Shown: piece after piece, positions 7,435-29,855 of the stretch
Layout: every line of letters starts with the position of its first letter
Numbering within the stretch: the stretch's first letter is position 1
Origin: Candidatus Saccharimonadota bacterium
GTDB taxonomy: Bacteria; Patescibacteriota; Gracilibacteria; UBA4473
Direction of reading: 5' to 3'
Length of the DNA stretch: 32,000 nucleotides
NCBI GenBank assembly: GCA_020632335.1
Contig: JACKFV010000001.1
Coordinates: 150,001-182,000, forward strand
Notes under the pieces: model-generated
Told to the model about the DNA's origin: nothing
What the model saw: the letters and a program-made list of their open reading frames with translations, nothing else
The model's database searches: none
Made by a program: the position numbers and the translations under genes

Positions 7435-7759
7435 TGTTACTGTATACACTTTTTTTAAATTTTTGCCAATTACCCACCCACCACAACGGGGAGCGTGTAG
7501 CCAGCGGTGAAATAATAAAATTAATTTAAACCTCACGGCGTCTCAAGACGTTTCCTAAGAACACCGTGCGGTCCCACGCGTTGCCGTCAAGCAACCATGA
7601 AACCACTGGTGTTCTCTCTCGGTATGTCAAACATCTCTCTCATCACCACATAAAAACATAACAGCAGCACTTGTCAATATGTTTTGTAGATAAATAGAAC
7701 CTAGCAGAGCTCTGCCGTGTCTTTCCCTTGGCATGTATATCACTGGCAGAGCAGGCTCG

Positions 7760-11012: not shown

Positions 11013-11102
11013 GTATTTTCTACTCTTTTTCTCAGCAGTATGCCCATGGTGTACTGCTTTTTTCTGCTGGTATTCTCCAGAAGATCGCTCTATACTGGTG
11101 GT

Positions 11103-12983
11103 ATGCGACGTCTTCTCCTTCTCCTACTCGGCGTGGGGTTCCTGCTACCGCTCCTCCCCAGTACAGCCGGGGCGCAGTACGCCAGCCGCTCCACCCCCTG
11201 GACCTGCTATAAAGACGGCAAACAAGACGAAACTGCCGAGAAAAACCTCCAGAATGCCATAGAGGATTTTGACAAAGTAGAGCAGGAGAGGCAAAACCAG
11301 GACAAAGACTACCAGAAGAAAGACGGCTGGGCCACCGTGCCCTACCAGGCGCCCTATGCCAATAGCTGCTTTCAGGTGGTGTGCTATGACAAGAATGGCA
11401 AAATAGACACCAGTGCGTCACAGGGTATTAAGAACCAGATCATCAGTATCCTCCCCTACGACCCGGTGCATAACCAGTGTATGGCGCTCTATGACCTCAT
11501 GGAGCAGGTCAACCAGTGCGTGAAAAACGGGAGTGACACCGCGCAGAAGCGGATAAACGAGATCGGGAATGAGAAGCGTGAGCTCCAAAAGGAGTACAAC
11601 CAGAACCCCGATATGGAGAACTACCGCCAGCACCAGAAGACCGCAAAGCTCATAAACAGCACCGCCGGGAAGGTCACCCTCGGGCTGGTGTGTGTACCAG
11701 AGTACGCCATGGACATCCAGTTTGATAGTGACTGCGTGTTGAAGGACCCGGTACAAATGAAACGGGTGAAGAACTGGGGCAACTGTAGTCCCACCGTCAA
11801 GAGTGGCCCGCCAAGTGCAGTCCATGCCGGGTGCCCCACGGGGGAGCTCGAAGAAGCGCAGCAAACCGCGCTCAATAACTTCCTCTCTAGCCATGGTCTG
11901 GGAGCGCTTACCTGTGCTAGCAAGACTGATCTAGAGAAGGCCTTTGAGGCCGAACAAGCGTACCAACAGGACATGTGTACCCTCAATAAAGAGATGAACG
12001 ACCAGCAGGACAAGCACGACAATGCCGAGAAGGGCACCGATGTCATTGGGGATCTGGTGTCGATCTGCTACCAGACGAATAGAGAGTTTGCCGAGGGCCA
12101 TGCCGAGAAGTGTAATGAGCTCTTAAAGATCCCTCTCGGGGAGGCGGGGGAGAAGCAGCAGCAGTACGACGCAGTCAAAAAGGAGCGCAACCAGCTTATT
12201 AAAGACATCGACGACTACCTGCGCAAGATACAGGCAGACTTTGGGGATCTGGGCAAGCACAGCATCGGCACCGGTTATGAGCAGAACGGCACCCAGCACT
12301 GCTATGAGATACGCATCCCCGGGCGTAGACCCAACAAGGAAGGCACCCTGACCATACGCTATGACAAGCTCGTCTACTGCGAACCTTTCAATCCGCCAAC
12401 CCCAGACCCCAAAAAAAGCACCTACTGGGATGATAACGGTAACCAACAGCAGGGAACGTATGGGGGCCCACTAGTGGATTTCTGCCGTGGGGTGACATCA
12501 CAGTCGACACCGATATGTAATCGGCAAGAGGTACTCGATGAGATCCGCAAGGCCTATGAAGGAGCCAATGGTATCATCGGGAAGGAGAAGCAGCTGGACG
12601 AGATCGGCAATGAGCTGGAAAAGCTTGACGGGGACTCGCTGCGGATAGCCAACATGTGCCCACTGCCCAGTGTACCGCCATGGGTCAGCCACGCGGATAT
12701 CCTCCCCGGCCCACCCAGAGCCAATAACGACCGCGGCATCCACTATGTGCTACAGCTGCTGTTGCCCTCCATTGCTAATGTCCTCCTGGTCTTCATGTGG
12801 GGAGGGGTGGTGCTGGTTATTATTCTGGCCGGCATTTTGCTGCTCTTCTCTGGTACCCCTGCTAGAGAGGGCCTGGTCCAAACCAGTAAAAATATGATAT
12901 ATTGGGCGATTCTGGGCAGTATCATTGCCACCATGGGCTATACGATCGTGAAATTCGTCATTGGTATTAACTTCCTCCAGTAA
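11103..12983 (+). CDS. Secreted Cys-rich protein (626 aa) ending in a TrbC/VirB2-like two-TM hairpin
   Basis: Signal peptide MRRLLLLLLGVGFLLPLLPSTAGA-Q. The ectodomain is about 540 aa with about 20 Cys and coiled-coil-like charged stretches. The C-terminus has TM1 (VLLVFMWGGVVLVIILAGILLLF), a short loop and TM2 (IYWAILGSIIATMGYTIVKFVIG). Confidence 0.6.
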   Translation: MRRLLLLLLGVGFLLPLLPSTAGAQYASRSTPWTCYKDGKQDETAEKNLQNAIEDFDKVEQERQNQDKDYQKKDGWATVPYQAPYANSCFQVVCYDKNGKIDTSASQGIKNQIISILPYDPVHNQCMALYDLMEQVNQCVKNGSDTAQKRINEIGNEKRELQKEYNQNPDMENYRQHQKTAKLINSTAGKVTLGLVCVPEYAMDIQFDSDCVLKDPVQMKRVKNWGNCSPTVKSGPPSAVHAGCPTGELEEAQQTALNNFLSSHGLGALTCASKTDLEKAFEAEQAYQQDMCTLNKEMNDQQDKHDNAEKGTDVIGDLVSICYQTNREFAEGHAEKCNELLKIPLGEAGEKQQQYDAVKKERNQLIKDIDDYLRKIQADFGDLGKHSIGTGYEQNGTQHCYEIRIPGRRPNKEGTLTIRYDKLVYCEPFNPPTPDPKKSTYWDDNGNQQQGTYGGPLVDFCRGVTSQSTPICNRQEVLDEIRKAYEGANGIIGKEKQLDEIGNELEKLDGDSLRIANMCPLPSVPPWVSHADILPGPPRANNDRGIHYVLQLLLPSIANVLLVFMWGGVVLVIILAGILLLFSGTPAREGLVQTSKNMIYWAILGSIIATMGYTIVKFVIGINFLQ

Positions 12984-13537
12984 TGCGCGCTCTTGGTCTG
13001 CTTGGTCTCTCGCTCCTTGTGCTGTGGCTCCCCACGCACCATGCTGGAGCGCAAAATGAGATCTACAACGAAACCTCACTCACCCGGCAGCTGGACCGTG
13101 ATGGCGATGGTACCCTCGACGAAAACCGAGGCCTGGACCCCCGCACGCTCGACGAGATATGGTTTCCCTCATGGCAGTCGGACATCCCGCGGAGCACCGT
13201 GGGCACTGGCGATGCTGTGGTGATAGACCCCTGTAATAATATGACGGGGAGCGGCCTCTCTGGGGGGAATCAATTTGTCTGTGGGGTCATAGGCAAGAAC
13301 TTTGACGGCATGCTGGTGATGAATTTTTTCAACCGATTCGCCGACCTCCTCCTTATGTTTCTGGTGCCTCTGTTACTCTTTTTTGTCATCCAGTCTGGGG
13401 TGCGGCTTATCACCGTAGAGGAACCCACAGAAAGGGCTCGTACCCGCAAAGCACTCATACGAGGCATCATAGGCCTGCTGATAACCGTCGTTGCCTACTC
13501 TGTAGTGAAGACTCTCTACTTCTTCCTGACACAATAA
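12983..13537 (+). CDS. TrbC/VirB2-like pilin-topology protein (184 aa)
   Basis: The ATG overlaps the previous stop (TAATG). Signal peptide ends ...PTHHAGA-Q. A DRDGDGTLDE loop is present. The C-terminal hairpin is LLLMFLVPLLLFFVI - basic loop (ERARTRKALIR) - GIIGLLITVVAYSVV. Confidence 0.6.
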   Translation: MRALGLLGLSLLVLWLPTHHAGAQNEIYNETSLTRQLDRDGDGTLDENRGLDPRTLDEIWFPSWQSDIPRSTVGTGDAVVIDPCNNMTGSGLSGGNQFVCGVIGKNFDGMLVMNFFNRFADLLLMFLVPLLLFFVIQSGVRLITVEEPTERARTRKALIRGIIGLLITVVAYSVVKTLYFFLTQ

Positions 13538-13543
13538 GTACTC

Positions 13544-14083
13544 ATGAATACTTTTATTACTCGTACATATAGACTCGGTTTACTCTCGCTCTGCCTGCTG
13601 AGTGGGAGCGTACTGGCGCAGGTATCTCCAGAGAATTCCTTTCCCGGGGAGGATAAGGGCACCCCCGGCTATAGCCTGGACGAGGGCTTGAGCCGCATCC
13701 TGCCCGAGGGGGCTAGTAACATCCGCCCGGCCTACCTGGTGGGCGCGGGTAAAGTAGCCCGGCCCATGCGCGCAGACGTCGCGGAGATCACTAACCAGAT
13801 ACAAAAGCTCACCAATGGTCTCACGCTGGGGGCTGCCACCATCGCGGTGGTGTTCATTGTCTTCTATGGGGTGCAGATAGCGCTGGGCAGTGGGGGTAAT
13901 GACACCGAAGCACAGAAGCACCTGCAGAAGCTCCTCCTGGCGGTGGCGGGGCTCGTGCTCATCATCTTCGCGTATATCATCGTGCGGACCATTGTGGCCA
14001 TCACCTACAGCGGCGAGGGCCTGCAGGGCGAGATAAACCAGGGGAACTTCAACGCGCCGCTACAAGACGCGGAGCTCCAGTAG
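13544..14083 (+). CDS. TrbC/VirB2-like pilin-topology protein (179 aa)
   Basis: Lies 6 nt after the previous stop. Signal peptide ends ...LLSGSVLA-Q. The hairpin is LGAATIAVVFIVFYGVQIAL - loop (GSGGNDTEAQKHLQK) - LLLAVAGLVLIIFAYIIV. Confidence 0.6.
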   Translation: MNTFITRTYRLGLLSLCLLSGSVLAQVSPENSFPGEDKGTPGYSLDEGLSRILPEGASNIRPAYLVGAGKVARPMRADVAEITNQIQKLTNGLTLGAATIAVVFIVFYGVQIALGSGGNDTEAQKHLQKLLLAVAGLVLIIFAYIIVRTIVAITYSGEGLQGEINQGNFNAPLQDAELQ

Positions 14084-14162
14084 TAGTACTTTTCACTAAG
14101 TAGCACGCCGCAGCAAGCCACTCTGGCAGACAATAGCGGGCAAGTATTGGTATGATGAGCGT

Positions 14163-16496
14163 ATGTATCGCCTCCTGCTCATCACGCTTCTGTTTCCCTC
14201 TCTGGCCGCGGCGCAGTCGGTGCTGGTGGAGTCCCCTGGGGTGGTGATTGCCCCACTGGAGATGCTCTGGGATGCGCCCCCCAGCAGTACAGCACTCCCC
14301 GTACGGCTGCAGTTCTCTACGCCTCTCAGCCTGGGGAGTAGTGTGCACTTCACGCTATCAGACAGCCACGGCGCCAGCATATTGGAGGAAACAACGCCCG
14401 TGCAAGACAGCGGCAATAACACCCTGGGGAGTGACGGCCGCCTGCCCAAGCAGTACGCGCTGCTCATCCCAGCGCCGGCCCTGAGTGGCGACACCTACAC
14501 CCTGCAGGCCACGCTGGAGGACCAAAATGGCCAGCCCCTGGCGCGAGGATCACGTCGCTTCACCATAGACGCGCCCGTACAGCTGCGCTATACCGAGAAC
14601 TTCACCCTGGTGGCCGCGGAGGCCAGCCCCACCGCACAGGTACAGTTCAGCTATCAGAATGACAGCGCTCCGCGCACCATCACACCCGTCATCAGCTGGT
14701 ATCCACGGGAGGGCGGACAGGCCGTGCTCAGCACTCCCCTGCCGGAAAAATCTGTAGCTGCTGATGGCGCTGTGGCTTATCAGGAGGCTATACCCACCCC
14801 CACGGTACCGGGGCACTACTACGCCACTCTGCGGGTAGAGGGCAGCGCTGGCAGTGCCATCACGGGGCAGATACGCGTACCGGTGACCATCCAGGGTGAA
14901 TTTGCGAGCATAGAGAACGTCGCTCACTCCCCCGAGCGCGCCTGGCAGCAGGGTGAGGAAGTGACGCTCACAGCGGATATATACACGCGAGATACCGGGC
15001 TGCCGGTCTTCCTCCGCACCAGCGTAGCCGAGTCCAGCGCCGGTCAGCAGACTCACACCGGGCAGATAGAGGACCGCGTGAGTAGAGGATTTGGCGTACG
15101 AATACCCCTGCAGCAGCGCTACACCGTGCAGGGCCAGCGTACCGAGCAGCTCCAGATGGAGACAGAGGTCATCCGTGACGGGGTGGTTATCGGCAGCCGC
15201 AGCTGGCGAACCCCCGTCTACCCCCAGCCAGAGAGCGCTGTGAACCCCACAGACCCCAGTACTCCAACGCCAGCAACCACCGCCTCCCCCGATAATACCC
15301 CCACGGAGGCCACGCCAGACACCCCAGAAGCCCCCAGTCTGCTCACCCAGCCGGGCTACTGGGCGATGGTGGGGTTGCTGCTGGTGGCTATAGGGCTTGG
15401 CATCTGGTACGCGCTGCGTAAAAAAAAAGTCCTGTCGCTCCTCATAACGATCCTCAGCGCTAGCCTCCTGGGGCAGAGCGCCCACGCGCAAATACCCGAC
15501 ATGACCCCCTACGCGTGGACATTTGAGACGCAGGTGAGCGAGACCTACCTCAACCCCAGCGATCCCTTTTTCGCGGAGGCGAGGCTGCAGGTGACTGCCC
15601 TCAATATGATGAACACCAGTCTGGAGTTCTTTGCTGACTATACCCTCATCGGTACGGTGGTGTACTTCACGGCGGCGCCGGGGGCTCCCCTCGTGCAGGA
15701 GTCCCTCCTCATAGACCCGATGGACGAGAACCGCTTTGCCATGAGCTTTAGCATCCCTCCCAGTACGGCCGGCATGCTGAGCGACGGCAGCTATACGCTC
15801 TATCTGCAGCTGGATATGGACGTACCCGGCACGGGCCTGCGGAGCTACGGGCTGACCATCAGCCCCTACCACCTGGATACCACCCCCCCCACGGTGCAGT
15901 ACCAGTACACCGACCAGGCTATGAAAGATGCCTATGGCCCCAGCGCCAGCACCCCCCAGGCCCCTCCGCTGCCATACACCACCGCCAACCCCATTGGCAT
16001 AGAGCGGCTCTGCACTGACCCCGACAGCAGTGGCGTGATAGGAAGCGGCTGCAGTAGCGTGGGAGGCGAGGAGACCTTCAGCCTGGAGACCGCCTATGCG
16101 CCGATCACCCTGAATGCCTGTGATAGGGTCAATAACTGCCTGTGTAGTGGGAGTGCCTGCTCCCCGAGTGCCGCGGTGTATACGCAGATGTACAGCACCG
16201 GTGGCGAGACGTTGGGGGATTTTAGCCTCTCTACCGAGGGGTATAGCGTGCAGGGCACTCCGGGAGAGACCATCCGCGCGAGTGAGAATATGCCCGTCTC
16301 TATCACTACGGTAGTGAGTGGCGCTGCTCCTGTTCTCCCCGCTGAGCCCTGCGCCCCTGCCGGCATGGTGGAGAACGGTGGCGGTTGCCAGCCGGCGCGT
16401 CTGCACTGCCTGGTGATAGACGAGTCTGGGCCGCTGCCCCTCATCACCCGGGGGACCTATGACCCGTATGACTACCAGGGGTGCACGGGGCTCTAG
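14163..16496 (+). CDS. Large surface protein (777 aa): signal peptide, ectodomain 1, Pro/Thr linker, central TM-RKKK-TM hairpin, Cys-rich ectodomain 2
   Basis: Signal peptide MYRLLLITLLFPSLAAA-Q. A P/T-rich linker (PTDPSTPTPATTASPDNTPTEATPDTPEAP) precedes WAMVGLLLVAIGLGIWYAL-RKKK-VLSLLITILSASLL. The C-terminal region is Cys-rich. The coding strand was chosen over the 618-aa antisense ORF. Confidence 0.7.
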   Translation: MYRLLLITLLFPSLAAAQSVLVESPGVVIAPLEMLWDAPPSSTALPVRLQFSTPLSLGSSVHFTLSDSHGASILEETTPVQDSGNNTLGSDGRLPKQYALLIPAPALSGDTYTLQATLEDQNGQPLARGSRRFTIDAPVQLRYTENFTLVAAEASPTAQVQFSYQNDSAPRTITPVISWYPREGGQAVLSTPLPEKSVAADGAVAYQEAIPTPTVPGHYYATLRVEGSAGSAITGQIRVPVTIQGEFASIENVAHSPERAWQQGEEVTLTADIYTRDTGLPVFLRTSVAESSAGQQTHTGQIEDRVSRGFGVRIPLQQRYTVQGQRTEQLQMETEVIRDGVVIGSRSWRTPVYPQPESAVNPTDPSTPTPATTASPDNTPTEATPDTPEAPSLLTQPGYWAMVGLLLVAIGLGIWYALRKKKVLSLLITILSASLLGQSAHAQIPDMTPYAWTFETQVSETYLNPSDPFFAEARLQVTALNMMNTSLEFFADYTLIGTVVYFTAAPGAPLVQESLLIDPMDENRFAMSFSIPPSTAGMLSDGSYTLYLQLDMDVPGTGLRSYGLTISPYHLDTTPPTVQYQYTDQAMKDAYGPSASTPQAPPLPYTTANPIGIERLCTDPDSSGVIGSGCSSVGGEETFSLETAYAPITLNACDRVNNCLCSGSACSPSAAVYTQMYSTGGETLGDFSLSTEGYSVQGTPGETIRASENMPVSITTVVSGAAPVLPAEPCAPAGMVENGGGCQPARLHCLVIDESGPLPLITRGTYDPYDYQGCTGL
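15420..15428. repeat. A9 homopolymer encoding the KKK of the central hairpin loop
   Basis: Read directly: cgt aaa aaa aaa gtc. Either +1 or -1 slippage reaches a stop within 6-12 codons after the tract. Confidence 0.95.
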
Positions 16497-20003: not shown

Positions 20004-20783
20004 ATGCGACGCCTTGGCGTATTTGACTCGGGTGTGGGCGGGCTGACCCTCCTGCGGGCGCTCCAGCAGGTCATGCCGGCCTGTCCCTTCCTCTACCTAG
20101 CTGACACCGCTGCCCTCCCCTATGGCGAGAAATCTCCGGCCGAAATCATCCACCGCACAGAACTCGTCACCCAGTACCTGGAGCACGCGGGCTGCAGTAT
20201 TATCGTCTACGCGTGTAATACCGCCTGTACAGTGGCCCACCAGACCGTACAAGCCCAGGGGGAGGTCCCGCACTTTGAGATCATCAGCCCGCTCAGGGAG
20301 CAGTTGCTGCTCAGCCGTGCGCGTCCGCTGGGGGTGCTGTGTACCCGGGCTACGGCGGAGAGTGGGGTCTTCCAGCAGCTGGGGGAGGAGCGTGGCAGCC
20401 CCTACCGAGTGCTCGCCTGCCCGGACCTCGTGCCGCTCATAGAGGGGAATGCCCCGCTAGAACAGCTGCAACGCGCGGTGAAGCGCTACTGCCGGGAGCT
20501 CTGCACCGGCTTCCTCCCGGAGATAGTGGTGCTGGGCTGCACGCATTATGAGGCGCTGCGGGGGCTCTTCCAGCAGTATCTGCCGCCCTGTACCCACATT
20601 ATCTCTCAGCCAGCGCTCCTGACCGTGGCCTTCCAGCGCTATGTACGGAACCACGAGGTGCTCATAGACACCATTGACACCACCCCCCGTACAGAGTACT
20701 GCTGTACTGCGCCGGTAGAGGTCCCCCAGGCCTTTACTCCCTATATCTCCCCCTCTACCCCTTGGCATGGCATCTCCCTCTAG
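20004..20783 (+). CDS. murI: Glutamate racemase (259 aa)
   Basis: VFDSGVGGLT is present, along with the two catalytic Cys motifs YACNTA and LGCTHY. Confidence 0.9.
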   Translation: MRRLGVFDSGVGGLTLLRALQQVMPACPFLYLADTAALPYGEKSPAEIIHRTELVTQYLEHAGCSIIVYACNTACTVAHQTVQAQGEVPHFEIISPLREQLLLSRARPLGVLCTRATAESGVFQQLGEERGSPYRVLACPDLVPLIEGNAPLEQLQRAVKRYCRELCTGFLPEIVVLGCTHYEALRGLFQQYLPPCTHIISQPALLTVAFQRYVRNHEVLIDTIDTTPRTEYCCTAPVEVPQAFTPYISPSTPWHGISL

Positions 20784-21975
20784 CCTCCCCGGTACTTACC
20801 TGGCTGTCCTCGGCCGCAACGCTGTGCTGAGCCGCACTGAGCTCAGCCGCTCTGCCCGGGAGCTCTGGACTGATGACGAAATAAGCCTGCTCACAGACCT
20901 GCAGGTGGAGAATCCTCGCTCCCTGCCCAAGGCCCCTGCGCAGCTCTTTCTCGACCGCCTGGGCGGCACCCAGCGCCTGGCCGTGCAGCTGCAGGTGGCT
21001 GCTACGGTGGAACAGAGCGTTAGCGTCATTGTGGACCACATAGCGCTGCACTACCCTGAGCTCTTTCCTCAGGGGGATCATAAATACCTCCTGGGCCTCT
21101 CCAGCTATGGCATGGGGAAATCTTTGAACAAAAAATATATGCAATCTATCACCCACGCCCTGGGGGAGCTGCCGCACAAGTGGGTCAATGAGGGCACGCA
21201 AAATATGACCTCGGGACGGTACTTCCACGAGAAAGTGGGACACAAGGGCGCCGAGTACATCGTGCACCAGACGACCGAGGGGATAGGGGTCTACCACACG
21301 GTGGCCAACCAGAACCTGCGCAATTACACCCTGCGTGACCGGCATAAAGAGGGCGACAGCACCATGGGTATGCTGCCGCCCAAGCTGGCGCAGATCCTCA
21401 TAAACCTCGCCCAGCCAGCCCCCGGCACCACCATCGTGGACCCTTTTTGTGGCTCGGGTACTGTGAATACCGAGGCGGCGATCATGGGCTACCCCACCCT
21501 GGGCAGTGACCAGAGCAAAGAGCACATCAAGATGGCGCAGCGCAACTGGAACTTCCTCAGTGAAAAATTTCGCTTCAGTACGGATTCTGGGCGCTTCACC
21601 ATCGCCGATGCCACGGAGCGGGACTACCCCCAGGGCGTCATGGTAACCGAGGGCTGGCTGGGGCAGAACTTCACCAGCAGACCCTCTAAAGACGCCGCAG
21701 CGCGAGAAGCCGAGCAAGTGGTGGCCCTCTGGCAGCGACTCTTCCTCACCCTCGAGAAGGCGCCTATAGACCGCATCGTCTGCTGCTGGCCCGTGTGGTA
21801 CTGCCGTGATGGCGCGGTAAAAGTCGACAAAAAAATACTTGCGCTCGCAAAGCGCTCTCACTACACTCCAGTGGCTTTTTGCGATGGGAGCCTGGGGCAA
21901 GTGTACGCGCGTGAGGGGGCCTATGTAGGGCGATGGGTGCAGGTACTGCAGAGAGCACAGGATCTTCCCGGGTAG
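20767..21975 (+). CDS. SAM-dependent methyltransferase, UPF0020/Trm11-like (putative RNA or DNA N-methylase, 402 aa)
   Basis: Motif I region reads LPPKLAQILINLAQPAPGTTIVDPFCGSGT...GSD. A degenerate motif IV-like VTEGWLGQ follows. The gene overlaps murI by 17 nt, and its stop lies 10 nt inside tRNA-Asn. Confidence 0.65.
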   Translation: MASPSSLPGTYLAVLGRNAVLSRTELSRSARELWTDDEISLLTDLQVENPRSLPKAPAQLFLDRLGGTQRLAVQLQVAATVEQSVSVIVDHIALHYPELFPQGDHKYLLGLSSYGMGKSLNKKYMQSITHALGELPHKWVNEGTQNMTSGRYFHEKVGHKGAEYIVHQTTEGIGVYHTVANQNLRNYTLRDRHKEGDSTMGMLPPKLAQILINLAQPAPGTTIVDPFCGSGTVNTEAAIMGYPTLGSDQSKEHIKMAQRNWNFLSEKFRFSTDSGRFTIADATERDYPQGVMVTEGWLGQNFTSRPSKDAAAREAEQVVALWQRLFLTLEKAPIDRIVCCWPVWYCRDGAVKVDKKILALAKRSHYTPVAFCDGSLGQVYAREGAYVGRWVQVLQRAQDLPG

Positions 21976-22040
21976 CTCAGCGGTAGAGCAATTGGCTGTT
22001 AACCAATTGGTCGTCGGTTCGAATCCGACCCCGGGAGCCA
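21966..22040 (+). tRNA. tRNA-Asn (anticodon GUU), CCA encoded
   Basis: Folds by hand into a cloverleaf: TCCCGGG/CCCGGGA acceptor, GCTC..GAGC D arm, ATTGG-CTGTTAA-CCAAT anticodon arm, GTCGG-TTCGAAT-CCGAC T arm, then G-CCA. Length is 75 nt. Confidence 0.9.
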
Positions 22041-22443
22041 GTAGAATTTATTGACGAAGAATCGCCCTTAGCAGCGGTCTTTTGTTCATGCGGATAATTC
22101 GTCAAAGCTATTATGTGAGAAGGCTCCCGCCATTCTATCGCTACGCCATCTCCGTATAAAAACACGGTTCAGACTCAGGGATAAGAGCCGTTCAATTCTT
22201 GGTTCAGACCTAGCGTCTTTCCTGGAAGGCAACTTCCGCCTCAAGGCGTCAGGTTCTGTGCGCTGCTAGTAGTAGGGAGCATCCCTAAAGGATTGCAGCG
22301 ACTTTAATTACTGTAAAATCCCTCTTAGCTTATCTTGCCCCATACTGTGGGAGTGACTCTCCTGCAACGCCATGGGTGGCATAATGGTGTGGGATTCAGA
22401 CTATTCCCCTTGCGGGATGGACAGCGGTCTGTATGCTCTTGGC

Positions 22444-24093
22444 ATGGAATCACGCGTCTGTAGCGTCTCAGGAGAATCCTTCACGGTGAGCGAGCTGGAG
22501 CGGGGTCTACGGCAGAAGTTTGGGTTGGAGGGGCTCCCCACTACGGCTCCGTGGGTGCGGTTGCGGCACTTGGGGACGTTCTGGCAGCACTTCCATCTGC
22601 ATAAGCGGGGCTGCGATAAGACGGGGCAGAGCATTATTTCGCCTTTTCGTGCAGACTGCCCGTATAAGGTGTATCACAAGGACGTCTGGCTGGAGCATGA
22701 CGACACCGTGGGCGCGGACGTAAATTTTGAGGAGCCAGTGTTTCAGCAGCTCTGGCAGTTTTTTCCGGAGAATCCGATACCAGATAGATTTGGGGCTAAT
22801 ACAGAAAACTGCGAATATACCGATAATATATGGAATGCAAAAAATTGTTATCTTTCCTTTAACGCTGACACCATAGAAAATTGTAGCTATAGTGTGCATC
22901 TCGCATTTAGTCGAGATATATATCATTGTTACTTTGTAGTAAATAGTGAGGTTGTATATGAGTCTGCCAATTGTATGCATGTTTATAATGTCGTGTATTG
23001 CGTACAGAGCCAGCAGTGCCATGACAGCGCCTTTCTCTATGACTGCCGGAACTGTAAAGACTGTATGTTCTGTTGTAACCTCCGGAACAAGCAGTACTGC
23101 TTTGGGAATCAGCAGCTGACGCAGGAGCAGTACGAGCAGAAGAAAGCGGAGTGGGATCTCTCCTCACGAGCGGTGTATGAACGCGCAAAAGGGTTTTTTG
23201 CAGAGATGATGCTGACTATGGCCTGGCATAGAGCGCTAGAACAGCAGCAGACAGAAGACGTACACGGCAACTATATAACGGAGTCTAAGAGTGTAGAGAA
23301 TGGATATTTTGTTGATAAAGTACACACTGCCGTTAACGTCTTGCGAGGGTATGACTTCCAGGATACCCTTGATTGTGTATCTCCAGGATTAAGTCAGCTG
23401 ACTTATCTGTGCTGTTTTGTGGGCTTACAGGCTTATGAAGTTCGCTTTTCTTTCTCGTGCTATGAATCGCATGACCTGGAGTACTGTGCCTTTTGCCAAA
23501 ACTGCGAGAACTGCTTTGGGTGCGTGGGGCTGCGGGGGAAGCAGTACTATATTTTCAATAAACCGTATAGCGAGGAGGCCTACCACGCGCTGAAGGCTCA
23601 GCTGGTGGAGTACATGAAGAGCACGGGCGAATACGGACAATTCTTCCCCGGGTACTTCAGCCCCGCGCCGTATGACGAGACGATCAGCGGGTATTACTGG
23701 CCACTGGATAAGTCGCAGCAGGAGCAGCTGGGGTTCCGCTATGCCGCGCCGGTAGAGAAGCACAATGCCGGCTACCGGAGCGTAGAGGAAATCCCCGATA
23801 CTCCCGAGGGCTGGACAGACAGCATGTACCAGCACGTCTACTGGGACGAGGTAGCTGGCAAGCCTTTCCAGATAACCAAGCAAGACGTCGCCTTTGCCAA
23901 GAAAATGGGCGTCCCACTGCCAGACAGCCACTATATGCGACGCATACAAGAGAACCTCCGCTGGATGCCCTTTGACGGTAAGTTGCGCACCACCACCTGC
24001 GCCCAGAGCGGCAAAACGATAGAGACCAGCTGGCCGGCAGCGTATGACGGGCGCATCTTGAGCGAGGAAGCCTACAACCAGATGGTGGTGTAG
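22444..24093 (+). CDS. Cysteine-ladder protein, paralog A (549 aa), uncharacterised family
   Basis: Homologous over its full length to paralogs B and C. The start at ATG 22444 (MESRVCSVSGESF) was chosen by alignment with MEVRHCSISGKAF. It has two Cys-rich modules, each ending C(K/E)(D/N)C(M/F)(F/G)C..LR.KQY(C/Y).., and a C-terminal FAKKMGVPLP motif. Confidence 0.75.
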   Translation: MESRVCSVSGESFTVSELERGLRQKFGLEGLPTTAPWVRLRHLGTFWQHFHLHKRGCDKTGQSIISPFRADCPYKVYHKDVWLEHDDTVGADVNFEEPVFQQLWQFFPENPIPDRFGANTENCEYTDNIWNAKNCYLSFNADTIENCSYSVHLAFSRDIYHCYFVVNSEVVYESANCMHVYNVVYCVQSQQCHDSAFLYDCRNCKDCMFCCNLRNKQYCFGNQQLTQEQYEQKKAEWDLSSRAVYERAKGFFAEMMLTMAWHRALEQQQTEDVHGNYITESKSVENGYFVDKVHTAVNVLRGYDFQDTLDCVSPGLSQLTYLCCFVGLQAYEVRFSFSCYESHDLEYCAFCQNCENCFGCVGLRGKQYYIFNKPYSEEAYHALKAQLVEYMKSTGEYGQFFPGYFSPAPYDETISGYYWPLDKSQQEQLGFRYAAPVEKHNAGYRSVEEIPDTPEGWTDSMYQHVYWDEVAGKPFQITKQDVAFAKKMGVPLPDSHYMRRIQENLRWMPFDGKLRTTTCAQSGKTIETSWPAAYDGRILSEEAYNQMVV

Positions 24094-24680
24094 TGCTCTG
24101 GGACTGCACCAGGAGCGGTCTGTGGGGGATTACCTCCTAGAATACGAGGGCCTGGTAGCACGTCTCACAGAGGATTTGCTCGGGTCTGTCGGGGGCGTAA
24201 GTGGTGGAGATAGGGGCCCCACACTGGCCGCACTCCCGGTCATACAGCCGCCGAGGATTCCGCAGTGCCATGCGTTCTTTATGCCGTTGGTCCGGGTGTT
24301 TGCGCGGGATGGGCAGCCCCATTTTTTTGTAGAACTGGAGTTCTGCCGGCTGTATGCGGTAGTTTTTTCCGGTGACCTCGCAGGCCAGTATCTCCTTCGT
24401 GATGCTCTCAGGCACGTCCGCTATGGCCTCGGGGATCACGTAGGTCTGCGGCTGGTAGTCTTTTTTGTCCTCCTCGCGCCAGGTGTAGCCCCGTGCCAGA
24501 GCCTCTTCCCGCGTGAGCGGATAGTACTCCTGCGCGATGGTTTCGTTGTAGGCAAAGGGGCTCATCCCGGGCGGGAAGAACTCGCCCCACTCGCCGGTGC
24601 GCTTCATGTGCGCTATTATCTGGTCTCGTAGCGTGTAGTATTCTTCTTTGCTGTACTGCTTATTCAGGATGCAGTACTGT
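24061..24680. repeat. Outer inverted repeat, left arm (about 620 bp)
   Basis: Its reverse complement matches 29200-29819 with no indels (p+q=53880). Positions 24133-24631 are identical to 29249-29747 in my base-by-base comparison. The arm covers the 3-prime third of paralog B, the intergenic spacer and the last 33 nt of paralog A. Confidence 0.9.
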
Positions 24681-25801
24681 GCTTTATTGAGGCCATAACA
24701 ACCGAATGCATGTTCGGTCCCTCTGAGACAAAATTGGGAATACCATACATTTGAAGAGCCATCGTACAGTTGTGCACAGAACGCAGTATCAGCAGTATTG
24801 AGTCCTATACATACTCCTTCATAGCAGTTTTGTATTCCCATACCGCCGATATTAATATCCATACAATTGTAGTTTTCTCCGTCTCCTGCAAAGAGGTCAG
24901 CGCAGTAGGTAAGATTGTCTGCTCTGTGACAGTTATAGCAGTGTGAAAGATCCCGAGAATAAGAAAGCATATCCCCCGTGCAGTTTTCACATTGTATTTG
25001 TCGCGTACACTTATAAGAGAGATTTTGCTTGAACGTAGTGAAGAATTGTGCTAGCTGAGGGAGCGTATGAGTAGCTAATAGAACTTTCAATTTCTGTTCA
25101 TATACTTCTTTTGTGAGTTGTTCGTTATTAAAACAATATTTCTTATTTCGTAGGTTACTACAGCCAAAGCAATCACGGCAACCTATACAATCTGTGCAAA
25201 AATAACAGGTATTACAATTGTCAGAGTGTAGGGTATACACACATGTATGGCACTGTGTACAGTCAATACATTCATAACACAACTCACAGTTTCTCGTATC
25301 TTGCACATCTACAGAATCAAAACAATGGAAGACATTATTCCCATAGAGACACTTTTCATTGTAATCAGCACAGGTAATGAGATAACAATCTTTCATATAC
25401 CCGCAGTTATTGCAGTAGTCACAGTTTTCTAGTGTGTCTGCCACCACTTCTCTCATAATGTGGGGGACACGTTTCTCGAGCGACGCAAATTGCTCAAAAA
25501 ATGGCACGTTAAAGTCATATGCTTGACAATAATCTCGTGCGTCCCACGCATCACTATACCAGTATTTCGGTTCATAAAGTGTGTAGCCCTTATCTTCTGG
25601 GAACATACTCAGTCCTCGTTGTTTCGTTATGTTACATTCTGCCCAATAGAGCTTTCTCTCATTTCTATACGTCAGTCTTCTTCGGGCCCGCTCCTCCGGG
25701 CACAGGGTGGGCAGTGGCACGCCCATTTTCTCGTAGAACTGTATGTCTTGGTCTGTGATAGTAAATGCTTTGCCGGAGATGGAGCAGTGGCGTACTTCCA
25801 T
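24137..25801 (-). CDS. Cysteine-ladder protein, paralog B (554 aa), uncharacterised family
   Basis: ATG ORF with about 43 Cys by my count. An N-terminal CSISGKAFTITDQDIQFYEKMGVPLPTLCPEER motif and a related C-terminal CEVTGKNYRIQPAELQFYKKMGLPIP...RECGQCG...CETC motif flank two Cys modules. It lies 36 nt downstream of the ATPase on the same strand. Confidence 0.8.
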   Translation of the reverse strand: MEVRHCSISGKAFTITDQDIQFYEKMGVPLPTLCPEERARRRLTYRNERKLYWAECNITKQRGLSMFPEDKGYTLYEPKYWYSDAWDARDYCQAYDFNVPFFEQFASLEKRVPHIMREVVADTLENCDYCNNCGYMKDCYLITCADYNEKCLYGNNVFHCFDSVDVQDTRNCELCYECIDCTQCHTCVYTLHSDNCNTCYFCTDCIGCRDCFGCSNLRNKKYCFNNEQLTKEVYEQKLKVLLATHTLPQLAQFFTTFKQNLSYKCTRQIQCENCTGDMLSYSRDLSHCYNCHRADNLTYCADLFAGDGENYNCMDINIGGMGIQNCYEGVCIGLNTADTAFCAQLYDGSSNVWYSQFCLRGTEHAFGCYGLNKAQYCILNKQYSKEEYYTLRDQIIAHMKRTGEWGEFFPPGMSPFAYNETIAQEYYPLTREEALARGYTWREEDKKDYQPQTYVIPEAIADVPESITKEILACEVTGKNYRIQPAELQFYKKMGLPIPRKHPDQRHKERMALRNPRRLYDRECGQCGAPISTTYAPDRPEQILCETCYQALVF

Positions 25802-25802
25802 A
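25686..25802. repeat. Inner inverted repeat, left arm (117 bp)
   Basis: Its reverse complement matches 28081-28197 with one mismatch (G versus A in gcgtRccact). It starts 1 nt upstream of the paralog B ATG and covers codons 1-39. Confidence 0.9.
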
Positions 25803-25837
25803 CTCTGAATGTACAGGACTTACGAGAAGACACAACC

Positions 25838-28027
25838 CTAAATAATCGGCTCGTGGAAGTTCTCGTCCTGCTGCTCTAGGCTGCCGTCTTCCCAGGCTTT
25901 TATCTGTGCTTCGGCGTCGCGTTTGGGCATTGCGTAGGTCTTGCGGCTGTGCTCTCGTATCTCTTTGGCGCAGTTCTTCTCGGGGTAATGTATGGTGAGC
26001 GTCCGCCCACTGAAGGCCTCTTTGAGGTCGCCTTCTATGCTCATTTTGGTGTAGAAGTCTCGTACCCCCAGGTTGATAATGTCCCGCGCGGTGAACTTGG
26101 GCTGCAGCTCCTTCTCGAGAATCTGCGCGTCGTCGCCCCCTACCCGGAAGGTAATCATAGACCCCACATTCCCAAACACCGTCTTGAGGATCTGCGGGGT
26201 GAGCTGCCCCAGGAACTGGTGCGCTATGGTCAGGCACAGCCGGTACTTACGCGCTTCGCTCATGATCTCATCGAAGGTATCAGTGGCAAAGTTCTGGAAC
26301 TCATCCACATAGAAGTAAAAGTCTCTCCGGTTTTCTTCCAGGGTGTCGGCGCGTTCCATGGCGGCTTGGTATATTTTGGTCACGATAATGGCGCCCAGCA
26401 GCTGCGCATTTTCTTCCCCGAGGATCCCCTTACTGACCTTCACCAGCAGTATCTTCTGCCCGTCCATTACCTCCCGTATGTTGAATTTATTATGCGGCTG
26501 GCCCACAATATTCCGTATCATATTCGAGGCCAAGAACTGCCCTACTTTATTGAGGAGTGGTGTGATGGCCTGGTTATCGAATTTCTCACTCCAGCCGGCA
26601 AATTCATTCACCCAGAAGCTCTTGACCGTGTCGTCTTGTATATTCCGCACGATGTCCTGGCGGTAGTTTTTATCCGTCAGCATGCGCATGATGCTCAGCA
26701 CAGTGGTGCCGTCACTGTCCAGCAGCGCCAGCGTTGTCATCCGCAGCACGTGCTCCAGGCGGTCATTCCACCCCGCGCCAAAGAGTTTTTCGAATATCTC
26801 GAGGAAGCCGGTGGTGACCCGTATCTTCAGCTCTGGCTTGACATTCTCTATCGGGTTGAACGCTATCGGGAAGGCAATATCTGTGGGGTCTATCAGCACT
26901 ACGTCTTTCTGGCGGTGCTCGGGCACCATCCGGAGGACATTATCTACCAAGTCCCCATGGGGGTCCAGCACGCCTACGCCTTTGCCCGCCTGCAGGTCTG
27001 CCTGTATCAGCAGCTCAATGAGCTTACTCTTCCCGCTCCCGCTCTTCCCCACCACGTACAGGTGTCGCCGACGGTCACTACGCTTGATACCAAATGGCAC
27101 GCTACTCCCGTGGAAGTTCGTCTTCCCGAAGAAACTAATGTCACTGTCGTGGGTGTCTGTAGGGAGGCCTGGGGGGGCTTCTCCTTTGCGGCTGATGACC
27201 TGGATAATATTGCTCACCTCTCGTTCATTGGGCAGGTGGTAGAGGGTGGCTATCTCATCAGACGATAGCAGCAGACTGGGGTGGCTGCGCTTAGCAAAAG
27301 CCTGCACTGCCGCTGCTCCTTTATACTTTTGTGCTGGTTTTATGCTATTGAGGTCAAGCGTGTTGTAGTTCTTCAGTGTTGAGAGCATAGCGCTCAGTCG
27401 GGTAGCCGCTCCCCCCATAGTAGGGCCAAAGGCCGCCACCCGCAGCGACACCCTATACAGCCGACTCTGGAGCTTACTCGTGATGCTCTGGCTGAAGAGA
27501 TTTCGGTCTTGCTTCTTGAACCAGTACTTTATCCGGAACTTATGCCGGAAGGTATCCAGCATGCGCACAATACCCATCTTCCAGTGGAAGAACCCCGAGT
27601 CTGGCACCGGCGTACAGACCAGCTGGAACCACACGCCCTCCTCTGGTTTGGTCTTGCTCATCACACTCAGCAGCCCCGCCAGGCTATCCCCGTCAAAGTT
27701 CTGGTGGGTGTTGATGGGGTAAATGGCATTCCGCGTGAGGGTTACATCGGCTCCGGCTATGGGCATCCCCTGTGGCAAGAGTGTGGTATAGTCAGGTATC
27801 TGGAGGATTTCCGCTGCGGGAAACACCGCGTAGAACTGCCCCATGAGTACCTGGCACGTGCCGGGGTCCGCCGTGAAGACAAACCCCAGATTACCACTCA
27901 TCGTCACGATTTCCAGGCTGAATGTCTGGCCCACAAGGGTCTCGTGCAACTGGTTAAGGATCTCTGCAAAGGCAACCTCCTTCTTCTGATTATTGGGGGG
28001 CACTTGTATGAGGTAGGTCTCGCGCAT
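25838..28027 (-). CDS. Soluble VirD4/TraD/TraG-superfamily (type IV coupling-protein-like) P-loop ATPase with a ~320-aa N-terminal domain of unknown function (729 aa)
   Basis: Walker A is VVGKSGSGKS (about residues 325-334), Walker B is FYFYVDEFQNF, followed by LTIAHQFLGQL, as in TraG/TraD-type NTPases. No TM helix is present. The start at ATG 28027 (MRETYLIQV) was chosen because the upstream 68 codons of the long ORF are just the antisense of the paralog C 5-prime repeat. Confidence 0.7.
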   Translation of the reverse strand: MRETYLIQVPPNNQKKEVAFAEILNQLHETLVGQTFSLEIVTMSGNLGFVFTADPGTCQVLMGQFYAVFPAAEILQIPDYTTLLPQGMPIAGADVTLTRNAIYPINTHQNFDGDSLAGLLSVMSKTKPEEGVWFQLVCTPVPDSGFFHWKMGIVRMLDTFRHKFRIKYWFKKQDRNLFSQSITSKLQSRLYRVSLRVAAFGPTMGGAATRLSAMLSTLKNYNTLDLNSIKPAQKYKGAAAVQAFAKRSHPSLLLSSDEIATLYHLPNEREVSNIIQVISRKGEAPPGLPTDTHDSDISFFGKTNFHGSSVPFGIKRSDRRRHLYVVGKSGSGKSKLIELLIQADLQAGKGVGVLDPHGDLVDNVLRMVPEHRQKDVVLIDPTDIAFPIAFNPIENVKPELKIRVTTGFLEIFEKLFGAGWNDRLEHVLRMTTLALLDSDGTTVLSIMRMLTDKNYRQDIVRNIQDDTVKSFWVNEFAGWSEKFDNQAITPLLNKVGQFLASNMIRNIVGQPHNKFNIREVMDGQKILLVKVSKGILGEENAQLLGAIIVTKIYQAAMERADTLEENRRDFYFYVDEFQNFATDTFDEIMSEARKYRLCLTIAHQFLGQLTPQILKTVFGNVGSMITFRVGGDDAQILEKELQPKFTARDIINLGVRDFYTKMSIEGDLKEAFSGRTLTIHYPEKNCAKEIREHSRKTYAMPKRDAEAQIKAWEDGSLEQQDENFHEPII

Positions 28028-28080
28028 CACTATGAGTATAGAGTTGCTTGCATCATGTGGCAATGCCAGTATGGTCGAAA

Positions 28081-28197
28081 TATGGAAGTACGCCACTGCT
28101 CCATCTCCGGCAAAGCATTTACTATCACAGACCAAGACATACAGTTCTACGAGAAAATGGGCGTACCACTGCCCACCCTGTGCCCGGAGGAGCGGGC
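28081..28197. repeat. Inner inverted repeat, right arm (117 bp)
   Basis: Partner of 25686-25802 (p+q=53883). It starts 1 nt upstream of the paralog C ATG at 28082. Confidence 0.9.
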
Positions 28198-29743
28198 TAT
28201 GAGGAGGATGGTCTGGAGGAATGAACGACACTTATATAAGAGGAAATGCGATGCCACCGGTAAAGATATTCTGTCTGTAATGGCTCCGACTTACCCCGGG
28301 CAAGTGTACACCCCAGATGCCTGGTGGAGCGATGCGTTTGATGCTCGTGAATATGGTCGTGATTATGACAACACACGCCCTTTCTTAGAGCAATTTGCAG
28401 CCCTTAATGTAGCAGTCCCAGCAGTAGGGAGAGCCGTAGTGGCCACTACTCTGGAGAACTCCGAATACTGTAATGGCTGTGATCGTCTTAAGGACTGCTA
28501 TCTTCTCTTTGAAGCGAATAATGATGAGAAATGTCTCTATGGGAGAGGTGTCTACTACAGCTTTGATACCCTTGACAGTCTACACATAAATCACTGTGAG
28601 GCCTGCTACCAAGTGGTGGACTGTCAGCAGTGTAGCTTCAGCACCTACCTCATGGATGCCACCCAGTGCACGGACTGCCACTACTGCGCCGACTGCATAG
28701 GCTGCTCCCACTGCTTTGGGTGTGTGAATCTCCGCCAAAAGCGCTACTGTTTTAATAACCAACAGTTGACTCCAGAACAGTACACAGAAAAAGTAGCCGA
28801 GTTACGAGCACGCTACACTCCTCATGAACTACACGATTTTTTCTTGGCATTCAGAAAAACCCAACCCGCGCGAGCAAACCACTCTCTCCGTGCAGAAAAT
28901 TCTACCGGAGATTTTCTCTATAACACCCAGAACTGCACCAACTGCTATGACTGCCACGCAAGCCAAGACTGCAGCTATTGCACCAATCTGGCTGAAAAGG
29001 GAACGAATCATACTAACTACGATATTTCCCTCTTTGGGAATGGCACCACCAACTCCTATGAGTGCAATGCTGTAGGAGTTGCTGTAGATAGCCTCTTGTT
29101 CTGTAGTCATTGTATTATCAATAATTATAATCTGGCATACTGTAGCTGGTGCGTCAACGGCACCCACGACTGCTTTGGCTGCGTGGGGCTGAAAAAGCAA
29201 CAGTACTGCATCCTGAATAAGCAGTACAGCAAAGAGGAATACTTCACACTACGAGACCAGATAATAGCGCACATGAAGCGCACCGGCGAGTGGGGCGAGT
29301 TCTTCCCGCCCGGGATGAGCCCCTTTGCCTACAACGAAACCATCGCGCAGGAGTACTATCCGCTCACGCGGGAAGAGGCTCTGGCACGGGGCTACACCTG
29401 GCGCGAGGAGGACAAAAAAGACTACCAGCCGCAGACCTACGTGATCCCCGAGGCCATAGCGGACGTGCCTGAGAGCATCACGAAGGAGATACTGGCCTGC
29501 GAGGTCACCGGAAAAAACTACCGCATACAGCCGGCAGAACTCCAGTTCTACAAAAAAATGGGGCTGCCCATCCCGCGCAAACACCCGGACCAACGGCATA
29601 AAGAACGCATGGCACTGCGGAATCCTCGGCGGCTGTATGACCGGGAGTGCGGCCAGTGTGGGGCCCCTATCTCCACCACTTACGCCCCCGACAGACCCGA
29701 GCAAATCCTCTGTGAGACGTGCTACCAGGCCCTCGTATTCTAG
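28082..29743 (+). CDS. Cysteine-ladder protein, paralog C (553 aa), uncharacterised family
   Basis: The start at ATG 28082 (MEVRHCSISGKAF...) was chosen by identity with paralog B. The first 39 and last ~180 residues are essentially identical to B, and the central ~335 residues are only loosely similar. It is divergent from the ATPase, with a 54-nt spacer. Confidence 0.8.
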   Translation: MEVRHCSISGKAFTITDQDIQFYEKMGVPLPTLCPEERAMRRMVWRNERHLYKRKCDATGKDILSVMAPTYPGQVYTPDAWWSDAFDAREYGRDYDNTRPFLEQFAALNVAVPAVGRAVVATTLENSEYCNGCDRLKDCYLLFEANNDEKCLYGRGVYYSFDTLDSLHINHCEACYQVVDCQQCSFSTYLMDATQCTDCHYCADCIGCSHCFGCVNLRQKRYCFNNQQLTPEQYTEKVAELRARYTPHELHDFFLAFRKTQPARANHSLRAENSTGDFLYNTQNCTNCYDCHASQDCSYCTNLAEKGTNHTNYDISLFGNGTTNSYECNAVGVAVDSLLFCSHCIINNYNLAYCSWCVNGTHDCFGCVGLKKQQYCILNKQYSKEEYFTLRDQIIAHMKRTGEWGEFFPPGMSPFAYNETIAQEYYPLTREEALARGYTWREEDKKDYQPQTYVIPEAIADVPESITKEILACEVTGKNYRIQPAELQFYKKMGLPIPRKHPDQRHKERMALRNPRRLYDRECGQCGAPISTTYAPDRPEQILCETCYQALVF

Positions 29744-29819
29744 GAGGCAATCCTCCGCAGGCTGCTCCTGTAGCAGCTCCAGAGCACTACACCACCATCT
29801 GGTTGTAGGCCTCCTCGCT
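29200..29819. repeat. Outer inverted repeat, right arm (about 620 bp)
   Basis: Partner of 24061-24680. There are three mismatches at 29235, 29244 and 29248, then a 499-bp perfect block, then scattered mismatches from 29748 to 29819. Confidence 0.9.
29787..29819 (-). pseudogene. 33-nt relic of the 3-prime end of a paralog-A-like gene
   Basis: The minus strand reads AGC GAG GAG GCC TAC AAC CAG ATG GTG GTG TAG (SEEAYNQMVV-stop). This is the same peptide and stop as the end of paralog A at 24061-24093. Similarity ends abruptly at 29819. Confidence 0.7.
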
Positions 29820-29855
29820 ATAGACCCTCGATAAAATTCCCGCTATACTAAAGGG

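Follow-up and report, generated by a model that had tools for sequence, protein, structure and literature searches.

The described systems closest to the locus reported here are the type IV coupling proteins (T4CPs) with their adaptors, for example TraD, which docks through a flexible C-terminal tail (Asp710-Phe717) on the DNA-binding adaptor TraM (PMC7555446), and the orphan T4CP homologues of Patescibacteria. A 2025 survey counted 5,713 T4CP homologues in 2,918 patescibacterial genomes, with 148 of them near virB4, and raised the exaptation of the orphan homologues away from type IV secretion (PMC12102498). Here we analyse a four-gene module in 32,000 nucleotides (nt) of DNA from Candidatus Saccharimonadota bacterium (class Gracilibacteria of the Patescibacteria; assembly GCA_020632335.1, contig JACKFV010000001.1, positions 150,001 to 182,000; hereafter the window, in whose own numbering all coordinates are given). 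Much of bacterial diversity lies within the Patescibacteria, and for most of the genes specific to their lineages no function is known. The module consists of a soluble ATPase and three paralogous cysteine-rich proteins (A, B and C), which we call Cys-ladder proteins and which are probably the missing partners of this widespread ATPase. It had been singled out in an earlier reading made from the letters alone (the sequence-only reading), whose claims are taken up below.

The ATPase (729 amino acids (aa); 25838-28027, minus strand) is a soluble protein of the FtsK/HerA/VirD4 superfamily and is 100% identical to an NCBI protein (P0121) annotated as 'type IV secretory system conjugative DNA transfer family protein'. 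Its Walker A (GKSGSGKS at 327), Walker B (FYFYVDE at 570) and AHQ..GQL (AHQFLGQL at 602) motifs are intact and are invariant in 51 homologues, among which the mean column identity is 61%. Pfam DUF87, TrwB_AAD_bind and TraG-D_C were matched on residues 310-640, with the DUF87/HerA domain scoring 40.3 bits (Pfam cutoff 23.2) and TrwB_AAD_bind 29.3 bits over residues 318-630 (cutoff 20.5). The AlphaFold2 (AF2) model (predicted local distance difference test score, pLDDT, 86) starts with a folded alpha/beta domain, the N-terminal ~300 aa being Pfam DUF8128 (PF26449, precomputed annotation), and continues with a P-loop motor carrying an all-alpha insertion (helices across 401-525), a disordered linker and an invariant C-terminal peptide. 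Foldseek placed the motor on TrwB with a target-normalised template-modelling (TM) score of 0.62-0.66 and also matched HerA; its best E-values came from a full-length alignment to TrwK/VirB4 (6e-17), but with a TM score of ~0.3 and a root-mean-square deviation of ~16 Å. A profile search of the PDB sequences with the ATPase gave no match. The best NCBIfam score was 50.6 bits against a cutoff of 250 (conju_CD1115), with the TraD/TraG models at 20-35 bits (cutoffs 366-686), VirB4_CagE at 12.9 (643) and the HerA equivalogs at 12-17 (800-970); since the ATPase falls far below every curated TraD/TraG/VirD4/VirB4/HerA cutoff, it is to be regarded as a relative of the coupling proteins and not as a member. 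On sequence and model comparison the ATPase is predicted to be a soluble, hexameric-type P-loop translocase of the VirD4/TrwB/HerA type.

The VirD4/TraD-like character and the missing membrane anchor proposed in the sequence-only reading are therefore both supported, the first by agreement of motifs, Pfam domains and Foldseek and the second by a maximal 19-residue hydropathy of 1.18, which leaves no N-terminal transmembrane anchor. The same reading had described a ~320-aa N-terminal domain that it did not recognise; to this part of the protein the annotation assigns DUF8128 (~300 aa). The ATPase family comprises at least 596 confirmed hits in species-representative genomes, and relatives are also encoded by phages (phrog_5156 at 7e-66; 14 viral contigs). 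No NurA-like gene is present, and neither VirB4 nor a relaxase was identified among the window genes scanned.

The three paralogs, A (549 aa; 22444-24093, plus strand), B (554 aa; 24137-25801, minus strand) and C (553 aa; 28082-29743, plus strand), align end to end with more than 100 homologues at profile scores of 536-817 bits, B and C being 65% identical to each other and A 33% identical to both. They share one layout, in which a basic X-domain is followed by two Cys-ladder solenoid repeats and a conserved alpha/beta core, and a second basic X-domain bears a treble-clef zinc finger. By hhalign this layout is internally duplicated: the first ~65 residues have their homologue in the C-terminal domain (E 1.5e-31) and residues ~118-240 in residues ~262-395 (E 3e-29). 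Each central half closes with a conserved helix, FGC-x-(N/G)L-x3-Y-C-x-x-N-K...EEY. Positive charge marks both X-domains (+4.9 and +6.8), the rest of the protein being acidic. The cysteine ladder itself is real: B contains 43 Cys, C 37 and A 26 (family median 38; 5-8% of the protein), and Cys columns follow each other at strict i+3 spacing over residues 160-214 and again in the second half, most ladder positions being conserved at only 30-85%. Conservation peaks at the termini and in the core at 377-470 (GEWGEFFP...SPFAYNET) and is lowest in the inter-repeat helix and the second ladder; the earlier description of the module as fast-evolving thus holds for the central Cys-ladder region but not for the termini, the core or the ATPase. 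Neither the paralogs nor the ATPase contain a hydrophobic stretch of transmembrane grade or an N-terminal signal (maximal 19-residue Kyte-Doolittle values of 0.8-1.6), in keeping with the single architecture, free of signal peptides and membrane helices, that had been read from the letters.

The proposal that the paralogs fall outside any characterised family also stood. Pfam, NCBIfam and PADLOC hold no family that covers them except the terminal 37-residue zf_Tbcl_2/zf_Tbcl finger, and PHROGs returned phrog_15341, which has no known function. zf_Tbcl_2 (PF23477/TIGR04272) is a CxxC-x17-CxxC treble-clef finger whose four Cys are 91-100% conserved in the family; it was matched by 25 of 42 family members (E<=0.1, best 1.9e-6), and zf_Tbcl by 11 of 42. 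A sequence-profile search of the PDB with the paralogs gave marginal LIM and Rds3 matches only. The AF2 model of paralog B (pLDDT 86, predicted TM score 0.90) had no Foldseek match below E=5 in the PDB and only small zinc-ribbon matches in BFVD. None of the three has a near-identical entry in the public protein collection (best match to B, 50%). The family is large: B has at least 7,991 homologues of ~550 aa, which align with it over 98-100% of the length at 41-50% identity, belong to Gracilibacteria, Peregrinibacteria and unclassified Patescibacteria, and carry the annotation 'hypothetical' or 'zinc-ribbon domain containing', and an exhaustive profile search returned 6,114 clusters (50% identity) at E<=1e-3 and 2,512 at E<=1e-30. 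Viral contigs are essentially devoid of it. Paralog A is, to judge from its alignments, a divergent, rare and old subtype, as its closest relative is an Abawacabacteria gene (L005, 12438-14078; 42% identity, against 31% to its own paralogs) and only 5 of 240 family members are A-like. Nor does an A-type specialised subunit always follow 3′ of the ATPase, an idea that was discarded because only one of eight genes in this position is A-like. Two homologues (P0116 and P0248; 729-731 aa) carry an N-terminal GNAT acetyltransferase domain fused to a full Cys-ladder protein, and the window has a stand-alone GNAT gene at 10443-11012.

The adjacency of ATPase and Cys-ladder genes is not peculiar to this genome. 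A census was made of 94 pooled loci, 80 of which were anchored on the Cys-ladder family in metagenomes. These loci hold 292 Cys-ladder genes, with TrmB-like genes occurring in 25 of the loci and ATPases in 23. A Cys-ladder gene is the direct neighbour of 20 of 23 ATPases and of 23 of 28 TrmB-like genes, and any other gene family recurs in no more than 5 of the 94 loci. The conserved module comprises a divergent TrmB-like winged-helix regulator (T), one to nine tandem Cys-ladder genes (C) and the DUF8128-ATPase (A), in the canonical order T< C> C> C> A>, with spacers down to 7-19 nt (L013, L006), and it occurs in Peribacteria, Peregrinibacteria, Abawacabacteria and Gracilibacteria. The 13 loci with the closest ATPases are L001, L002 and, among GTDB species genomes, L004-L013 and L021; they come from Peribacteria, Peregrinibacteria, Abawacabacteria and others, and in 11 of them the ATPase has one to nine Cys-ladder genes beside it; L001 and L002 have the divergent TrmB-like gene, two to three Cys-ladder genes, the ATPase and then further Cys-ladder genes. 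The adjacency is thus class-wide, and the refuting outcome named in the sequence-only reading, an adjacency unique to this genome, did not come about. The Cys-ladder family is multi-copy and dispersed, and the ATPase is almost always embedded in an array. Measured against this order, the window is a rearranged copy of the conserved module that has no TrmB-like gene: tblastn with eight TrmB-like proteins gave no match in it.

ATPases of other lineages have different company. None of ~70 loci of the Saccharibacteria type contains Cys-ladder genes, and in 51 loci without Cys-ladder genes a Sigma70_r4 + HARE-HTH protein (340-376 aa) lies directly upstream of the ATPase, a pairing seen in Saccharibacteria-type and split-type loci (L015-L083, L102). 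A small DUF8128-like gene that had appeared to lie upstream of Saccharibacteria ATPases was a clustering artefact and is really this Sigma70_r4 + HARE-HTH protein. In Saccharibacteria the ATPase locus sits between dprA-topA and a convergent dcw (FtsQ...PBP) cluster, and several lineages have a split ATPase, with DUF8128 and the motor encoded by separate genes.

The zinc finger of the Cys-ladder proteins is found in cis on the motor elsewhere. All five split-type motors examined (L102, L073, L081, L065 and L083) end in zf_Tbcl_2 above the Pfam cutoff (32-49 bits against 27), and the pattern of these fused fingers, LYDxxCxxCG...PD..RP.yCxxC, matches the last 37 residues of the Cys-ladder family. 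ATPases of the Saccharibacteria type end in a basic low-complexity tail. Those of the Cys-ladder clade have neither finger nor basic tail and end in F-x-(E/A)-P-[ILV]-[ILV]-COOH; in the window this is the peptide N-F-H-E-P-I-I (25841-25861, minus strand), a candidate motif through which, we propose, the ATPase docks with the Cys-ladder proteins. Residues F727 and P730 do not vary among the 51 homologues, an xEP[ILMV][ILV] ending is present in 120 of 120 close homologues, the last 25 aa carry a net charge of -4.3, and the last 12 residues are predicted to be disordered (pLDDT <50). Cys-ladder genes accompany the EPII-type tail in 12 of 13 loci and accompany other tail types in none of ~67 complete ATPases.

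In the reading that we favour, with a probability of roughly 0.45, the paralogs act in trans on the translocase, as its adaptor or specificity subunits. The two basic terminal domains, the second ending in the zf_Tbcl_2 finger, would supply a module that binds the substrate, most likely a nucleic acid; other Patescibacteria would have fused the zf_Tbcl_2 module to the C-terminus of the ATPase or replaced it with a basic low-complexity tail. The acidic F-x-E-P-I-I end on its disordered linker would serve as the docking handle, by analogy with the TraD tail on TraM, while the variable Cys-ladder solenoids would diversify what is recognised, and paralog arrays together with cassette exchange would supply alternative specificities. 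We infer physical docking, a nucleic-acid substrate and a role in specificity, for which we cite also the variable centre and conserved ends in the information profile of the family, the foreign centre of B beside the identical ends of B and C (see below), and the Sigma70_r4 + HARE-HTH protein as a DNA-binding partner of the ATPase elsewhere. The finger that is common to ATPases of other lineages and the co-occurrence of a clade-specific tail lend indirect support to the suggestion of the sequence-only reading that the NTPase has the variable Cys-ladder proteins as its specificity or adaptor subunits. A wider version, a hitherto unrecognised machine of reduced-genome epibiotic bacteria in which interchangeable Cys-ladder/zinc-finger proteins dock on the ATPase tail throughout the class and program which nucleic acid (or protein) is pumped, we regard as doubtful, and with similar reserve we consider that its diversification might proceed by cassette exchange between genomes and gene conversion within them.

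Several observations weigh against the adaptor reading. The correlation between tail type and Cys-ladder genes is confounded by phylogeny, because both are clade traits. Cys-ladder genes often lie far from an ATPase: L084 and L085 are solitary, L086 has a TrmB gene and four copies but no ATPase, and of the 35 Cys-anchored loci that span 12 kb or more only 8 have an ATPase within reach, a low number that is partly due to the length of the arrays. Within the window, paralog C scores 16.4 bits with zf_Tbcl_2 against the Pfam cutoff of 27, A and B have no match, and A has lost most zinc ligands of its terminal fingers. Finally, zf_Tbcl_2 is without mention in the literature searched, and a Saccharibacteria homologue of the ATPase has been reported as non-essential (PMC12102498).

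The dispersed copies also bear on a reading that involves co-regulation only, in which the TrmB-like regulator would control Cys-ladder proteins that serve in metal binding (Zn or Fe-S), redox chemistry or storage and that are physically unlinked to the ATPase. A Cys content of 5-8% with a CxxC-periodic ladder, a weak match of the profile to Rds3/PHF5A, a protein with a triple zinc knot (E 0.02), the occurrence of solitary copies and ATPase-less arrays, and a TrmB adjacency (23/28) at least as tight as that of the ATPase are all compatible with it. It leaves unaccounted for, however, the 20 of 23 ATPases that adjoin a family member, the finger common to ATPases of other lineages and the ATPase tail that co-occurs with the family, and the ladder Cys, mostly 30-85% conserved, are unlike obligate metal ligands; we hold this explanation to be quite improbable.

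The fused fingers also bear on another possibility, namely that the Cys-ladder proteins are cargo, effectors delivered via a type IV or other channel into the hosts of epibiotic or predatory bacteria. The T4CP-type domains of the ATPase, including TraG-D_C, would fit such a role, as would proteins that lack Sec signals like substrates of type IV secretion systems (T4SSs), combine conserved termini with a variable, horizontally exchanged centre, and come in arrays of one to nine or more copies resembling effector repertoires; the window has two VirB2-like T4SS pilin genes 8 kb upstream, and L086 has one at 4 kb from its array. However, recurrent linkage of T4SS pilins to Cys-ladder loci was not found by BLAST clustering, the window genes scanned revealed neither VirB4 nor a relaxase, the ATPase lacks a membrane anchor, and only 148 of the 5,713 patescibacterial T4CP homologues are near virB4 (PMC12102498). 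Proteins with ~40 Cys, probably folded tightly into metal-bound domains, would make poor secretion substrates, and the fusion of the zinc finger in cis to the motor in other lineages argues for a part of the machine and not for cargo. Delivery as effectors is accordingly an unlikely explanation.

The module also records recombination between B and C. An inverted repeat of 639 nt, 97% identical overall and 100% identical over gene positions ~1173-1652, has its left arm at 24056-24694 (the 3′ 558 nt of B and 81 nt past its stop, overlapping the 3′ end of A) and its right arm at 29186-29824 (the 3′ end of C and 81 nt downstream). A second pair of 190 nt, 82% identical overall with a 60-nt core at 98%, occupies 25646-25835 (the 5′ end of B and 34 nt upstream) and 28048-28237 (34 nt upstream of C and the 5′ end of C). 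Nucleotide identity between B and C is 98% at nt 34-93, falls to 40-60% mid-gene and is 100% from ~nt 1173 to the stop, with similarity running ~80 nt beyond it. The repeat structure remarked on in the sequence-only reading is thereby substantiated. The central cassette of B (24695-25708, minus strand) has 40.8% GC and 38.5% GC at third codon positions (GC3), against a GC3 of 75.7% in the 3′ end of B and 77-80% in host genes, which indicates that the centre of B is a foreign low-GC cassette recombined into a resident scaffold; the identical 3′ ends of B and C likewise indicate recent gene conversion, both judged from composition and alignment. A general concerted evolution of paralog C-termini was considered and rejected, given that within- and between-genome pairs are equal in C-terminal identity at equal central divergence, and in the lack of such a family-wide process the identical B/C 3′ end appears as a local, recent event. 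Both repeat pairs, nested, bracket the ATPase, with no recombinase gene nearby. As a speculation, recombination across the 190-nt pair would switch the paralog (B or C) downstream of the ATPase; the inverted repeat may also be an assembly artefact.

A further reading is an anti-phage or anti-plasmid conflict system in which a HerA/FtsK-like ATPase would work with variable sensors. Besides the diversification of paralogs, the foreign cassette in B and the gene conversion, this reading can draw on partial PADLOC matches of the ATPase motor to MADS mad8 (3e-13) and HerA (1e-6), on the phage-encoded relatives of the ATPase (phrog_5156; 14 viral contigs) and on mobile-element genes interspersed in some arrays, small genes between Cys-ladder genes (L005 15805-18936, L113, L133, L151 and L156) which we take, from a sequence motif and not from a hidden Markov model match, to be DNA-binding genes of the ORF6N/KilA-N-like (Bro-N) type. 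Against it, the ATPase is widespread and strongly conserved (at least 596 hits, 61% column identity, dprA-topA/dcw synteny in Saccharibacteria), the Cys-ladder family has no PADLOC match and is essentially absent from viral contigs, and no nuclease, Sir2, TIR or other effector domain and no other MADS genes were found. Within-genome paralogs are moreover as old as between-genome ones, which speaks against a recent arms-race expansion. The defence-type role entertained in the sequence-only reading, having only the partial mad8/HerA match and no effector domain to show, consequently fared poorly, and we rate a conflict system as improbable.

As for the setting of the module, the four large genes lie, as described from the letters, beyond a tRNA-Asn (GTT) at 21966-22040 (plus strand; ARAGORN; Rfam 74 bits) and a non-coding gap, given there as ~400 nt and here measured as 403 nt (22041-22443), that has no Rfam match; elsewhere the slot of this gap is usually filled by the divergent TrmB-like regulator gene. 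The ATPase and B run in the same direction with 36 nt from the stop of the former to the start of the latter, so that the co-directional pair is borne out, and a 54-nt divergent spacer separates the starts of the ATPase and C. This spacer includes a sigma-70-like promoter match on the minus strand (TTGCCA-17-TATACT, 28035-28063; 10/12, a consensus match only). The longer open reading frames (ORFs) first listed are artefacts of upstream in-frame sequence: the 797-aa ATPase (25838-28231, minus strand) and the 744-aa C (27509-29743, plus strand) read through the antisense of the neighbouring gene's 5′ end, and the 573-aa A is an ORF-finder product of an ORF that reaches back to 22372, whereas homology begins at M25 and the start at 22444 is preferred. 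Two antisense ORFs (24122-24631, plus strand, and 29249-29704, minus strand) are an identical pair created by the inverted repeat.

The position at a tRNA had suggested an accessory island, an idea that did not survive. The 25-mer at the 3′ end of tRNA-Asn occurs once in the window, even with three mismatches, no direct repeats were found, and no integrase is present among the window ORFs scanned. A tRNA-integrated genomic island was rejected for want of an integrase and att repeat and on account of its housekeeping flanks, to which the class-wide occurrence of the module and the 61% column identity of the ATPase can be added. The low GC that had been noted was confirmed, at 47-55% in the module against 58-59% in the flanks. 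The flanking genes encode MurI, a methyltransferase, PBP2, a major facilitator superfamily transporter, RRF, FtsQ, PNPase, an MgtC/DUF4010 protein and a 2-hydroxyacid dehydrogenase. A 402-aa UPF0020/N6_N4 methyltransferase-like ORF (20767-21975, plus strand) overlaps the first 10 nt of tRNA-Asn. Farther upstream, 6-9 kb from the module, an envelope gene cluster (11040-16496, plus strand) encodes a 647-aa protein with a signal peptide and three C-terminal transmembrane helices, two VirB2/T4SS_pilin-like proteins (12983-13537 and 13544-14083) and a protein of 777 aa that has a signal peptide but matches nothing in Pfam or NCBIfam. A low-GC patch (46.8%) at 7001-8000 beside tRNA-Thr (6726-6802, minus strand) contains short ORFs of 45-121 aa and no obvious gene.

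The linkage described here gives an orphan motor concrete candidate partners in one class, drawn from a family of at least 6,100 clusters that can number nine or more copies at one locus of a ~1-Mb genome and has no solved structural relative. The docking hypothesis is directly testable with the C-terminal peptide, a fused finger or a trans-acting finger protein. If true, the class-wide machine would provide a first function and a partner set for the orphan T4CP genes that Patescibacteria carry in their thousands, and would bring to light a new solenoid fold stacked by metal or cysteine; the Cys-ladder proteins may also show a new cysteine-stacked repeat fold.

The motor is of a known kind and has already been noted as an orphan. 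What we did not find in the searchable literature is the Cys-ladder family, its arrays, its linkage to the motor and the TrmB-like regulator, and the cis/trans relationship of the zinc finger; the literature search returned no paper on DUF8128, zf_Tbcl or Cys-rich patescibacterial families. For the ladder itself a known parallel is the Tenebrio molitor antifreeze protein, a Cys-ladder beta-solenoid of short repeats with a core lined by stacked cysteines. The proteins described here differ from it in being cytoplasmic, in a Cys period of 3 (four per 12) and in a duplicated ladder flanked by zinc-finger domains, and neither sequence nor Foldseek points to a relationship.

As regards the motor, VirB4/TrwK proteins resemble the ATPase in being soluble and in combining an N-terminal domain with a C-terminal motor, but the signatures of the motor are here of the VirD4 type and the TM score is ~0.3. 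HerA complexes (HerA-NurA, HerA-Sir2, HerA-DUF4297 and MADS mad8) likewise pair a hexameric motor with partner proteins encoded alongside, but the nuclease or NADase partner has no counterpart here and the PADLOC matches cover part of the motor only. The orphan T4CP homologues of other Patescibacteria (PMC12102498) belong to the same ATPase family, itself uncharacterised, at 34-39% identity over the full length, but have no Cys-ladder genes, have Sigma70_r4 + HARE-HTH upstream, carry a basic tail or a fused zf_Tbcl_2 and are sometimes split. With a T4CP (TrwB/TraD/VirD4) and its adaptor, as in F-plasmid TraD-TraM, the module shares a P-loop motor into which an all-alpha domain is inserted, a C-terminal tail that is acidic and flexible and has a hydrophobic end, and partner genes next door. 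It departs from them in that DUF8128 (~300 aa) replaces the N-terminal transmembrane anchor and no relaxase or VirB4 was found in the window, and in that the partner, a small ribbon-helix-helix protein in the TraM type, is here a 550-aa Cys-ladder/zinc-finger protein encoded in multi-copy arrays.

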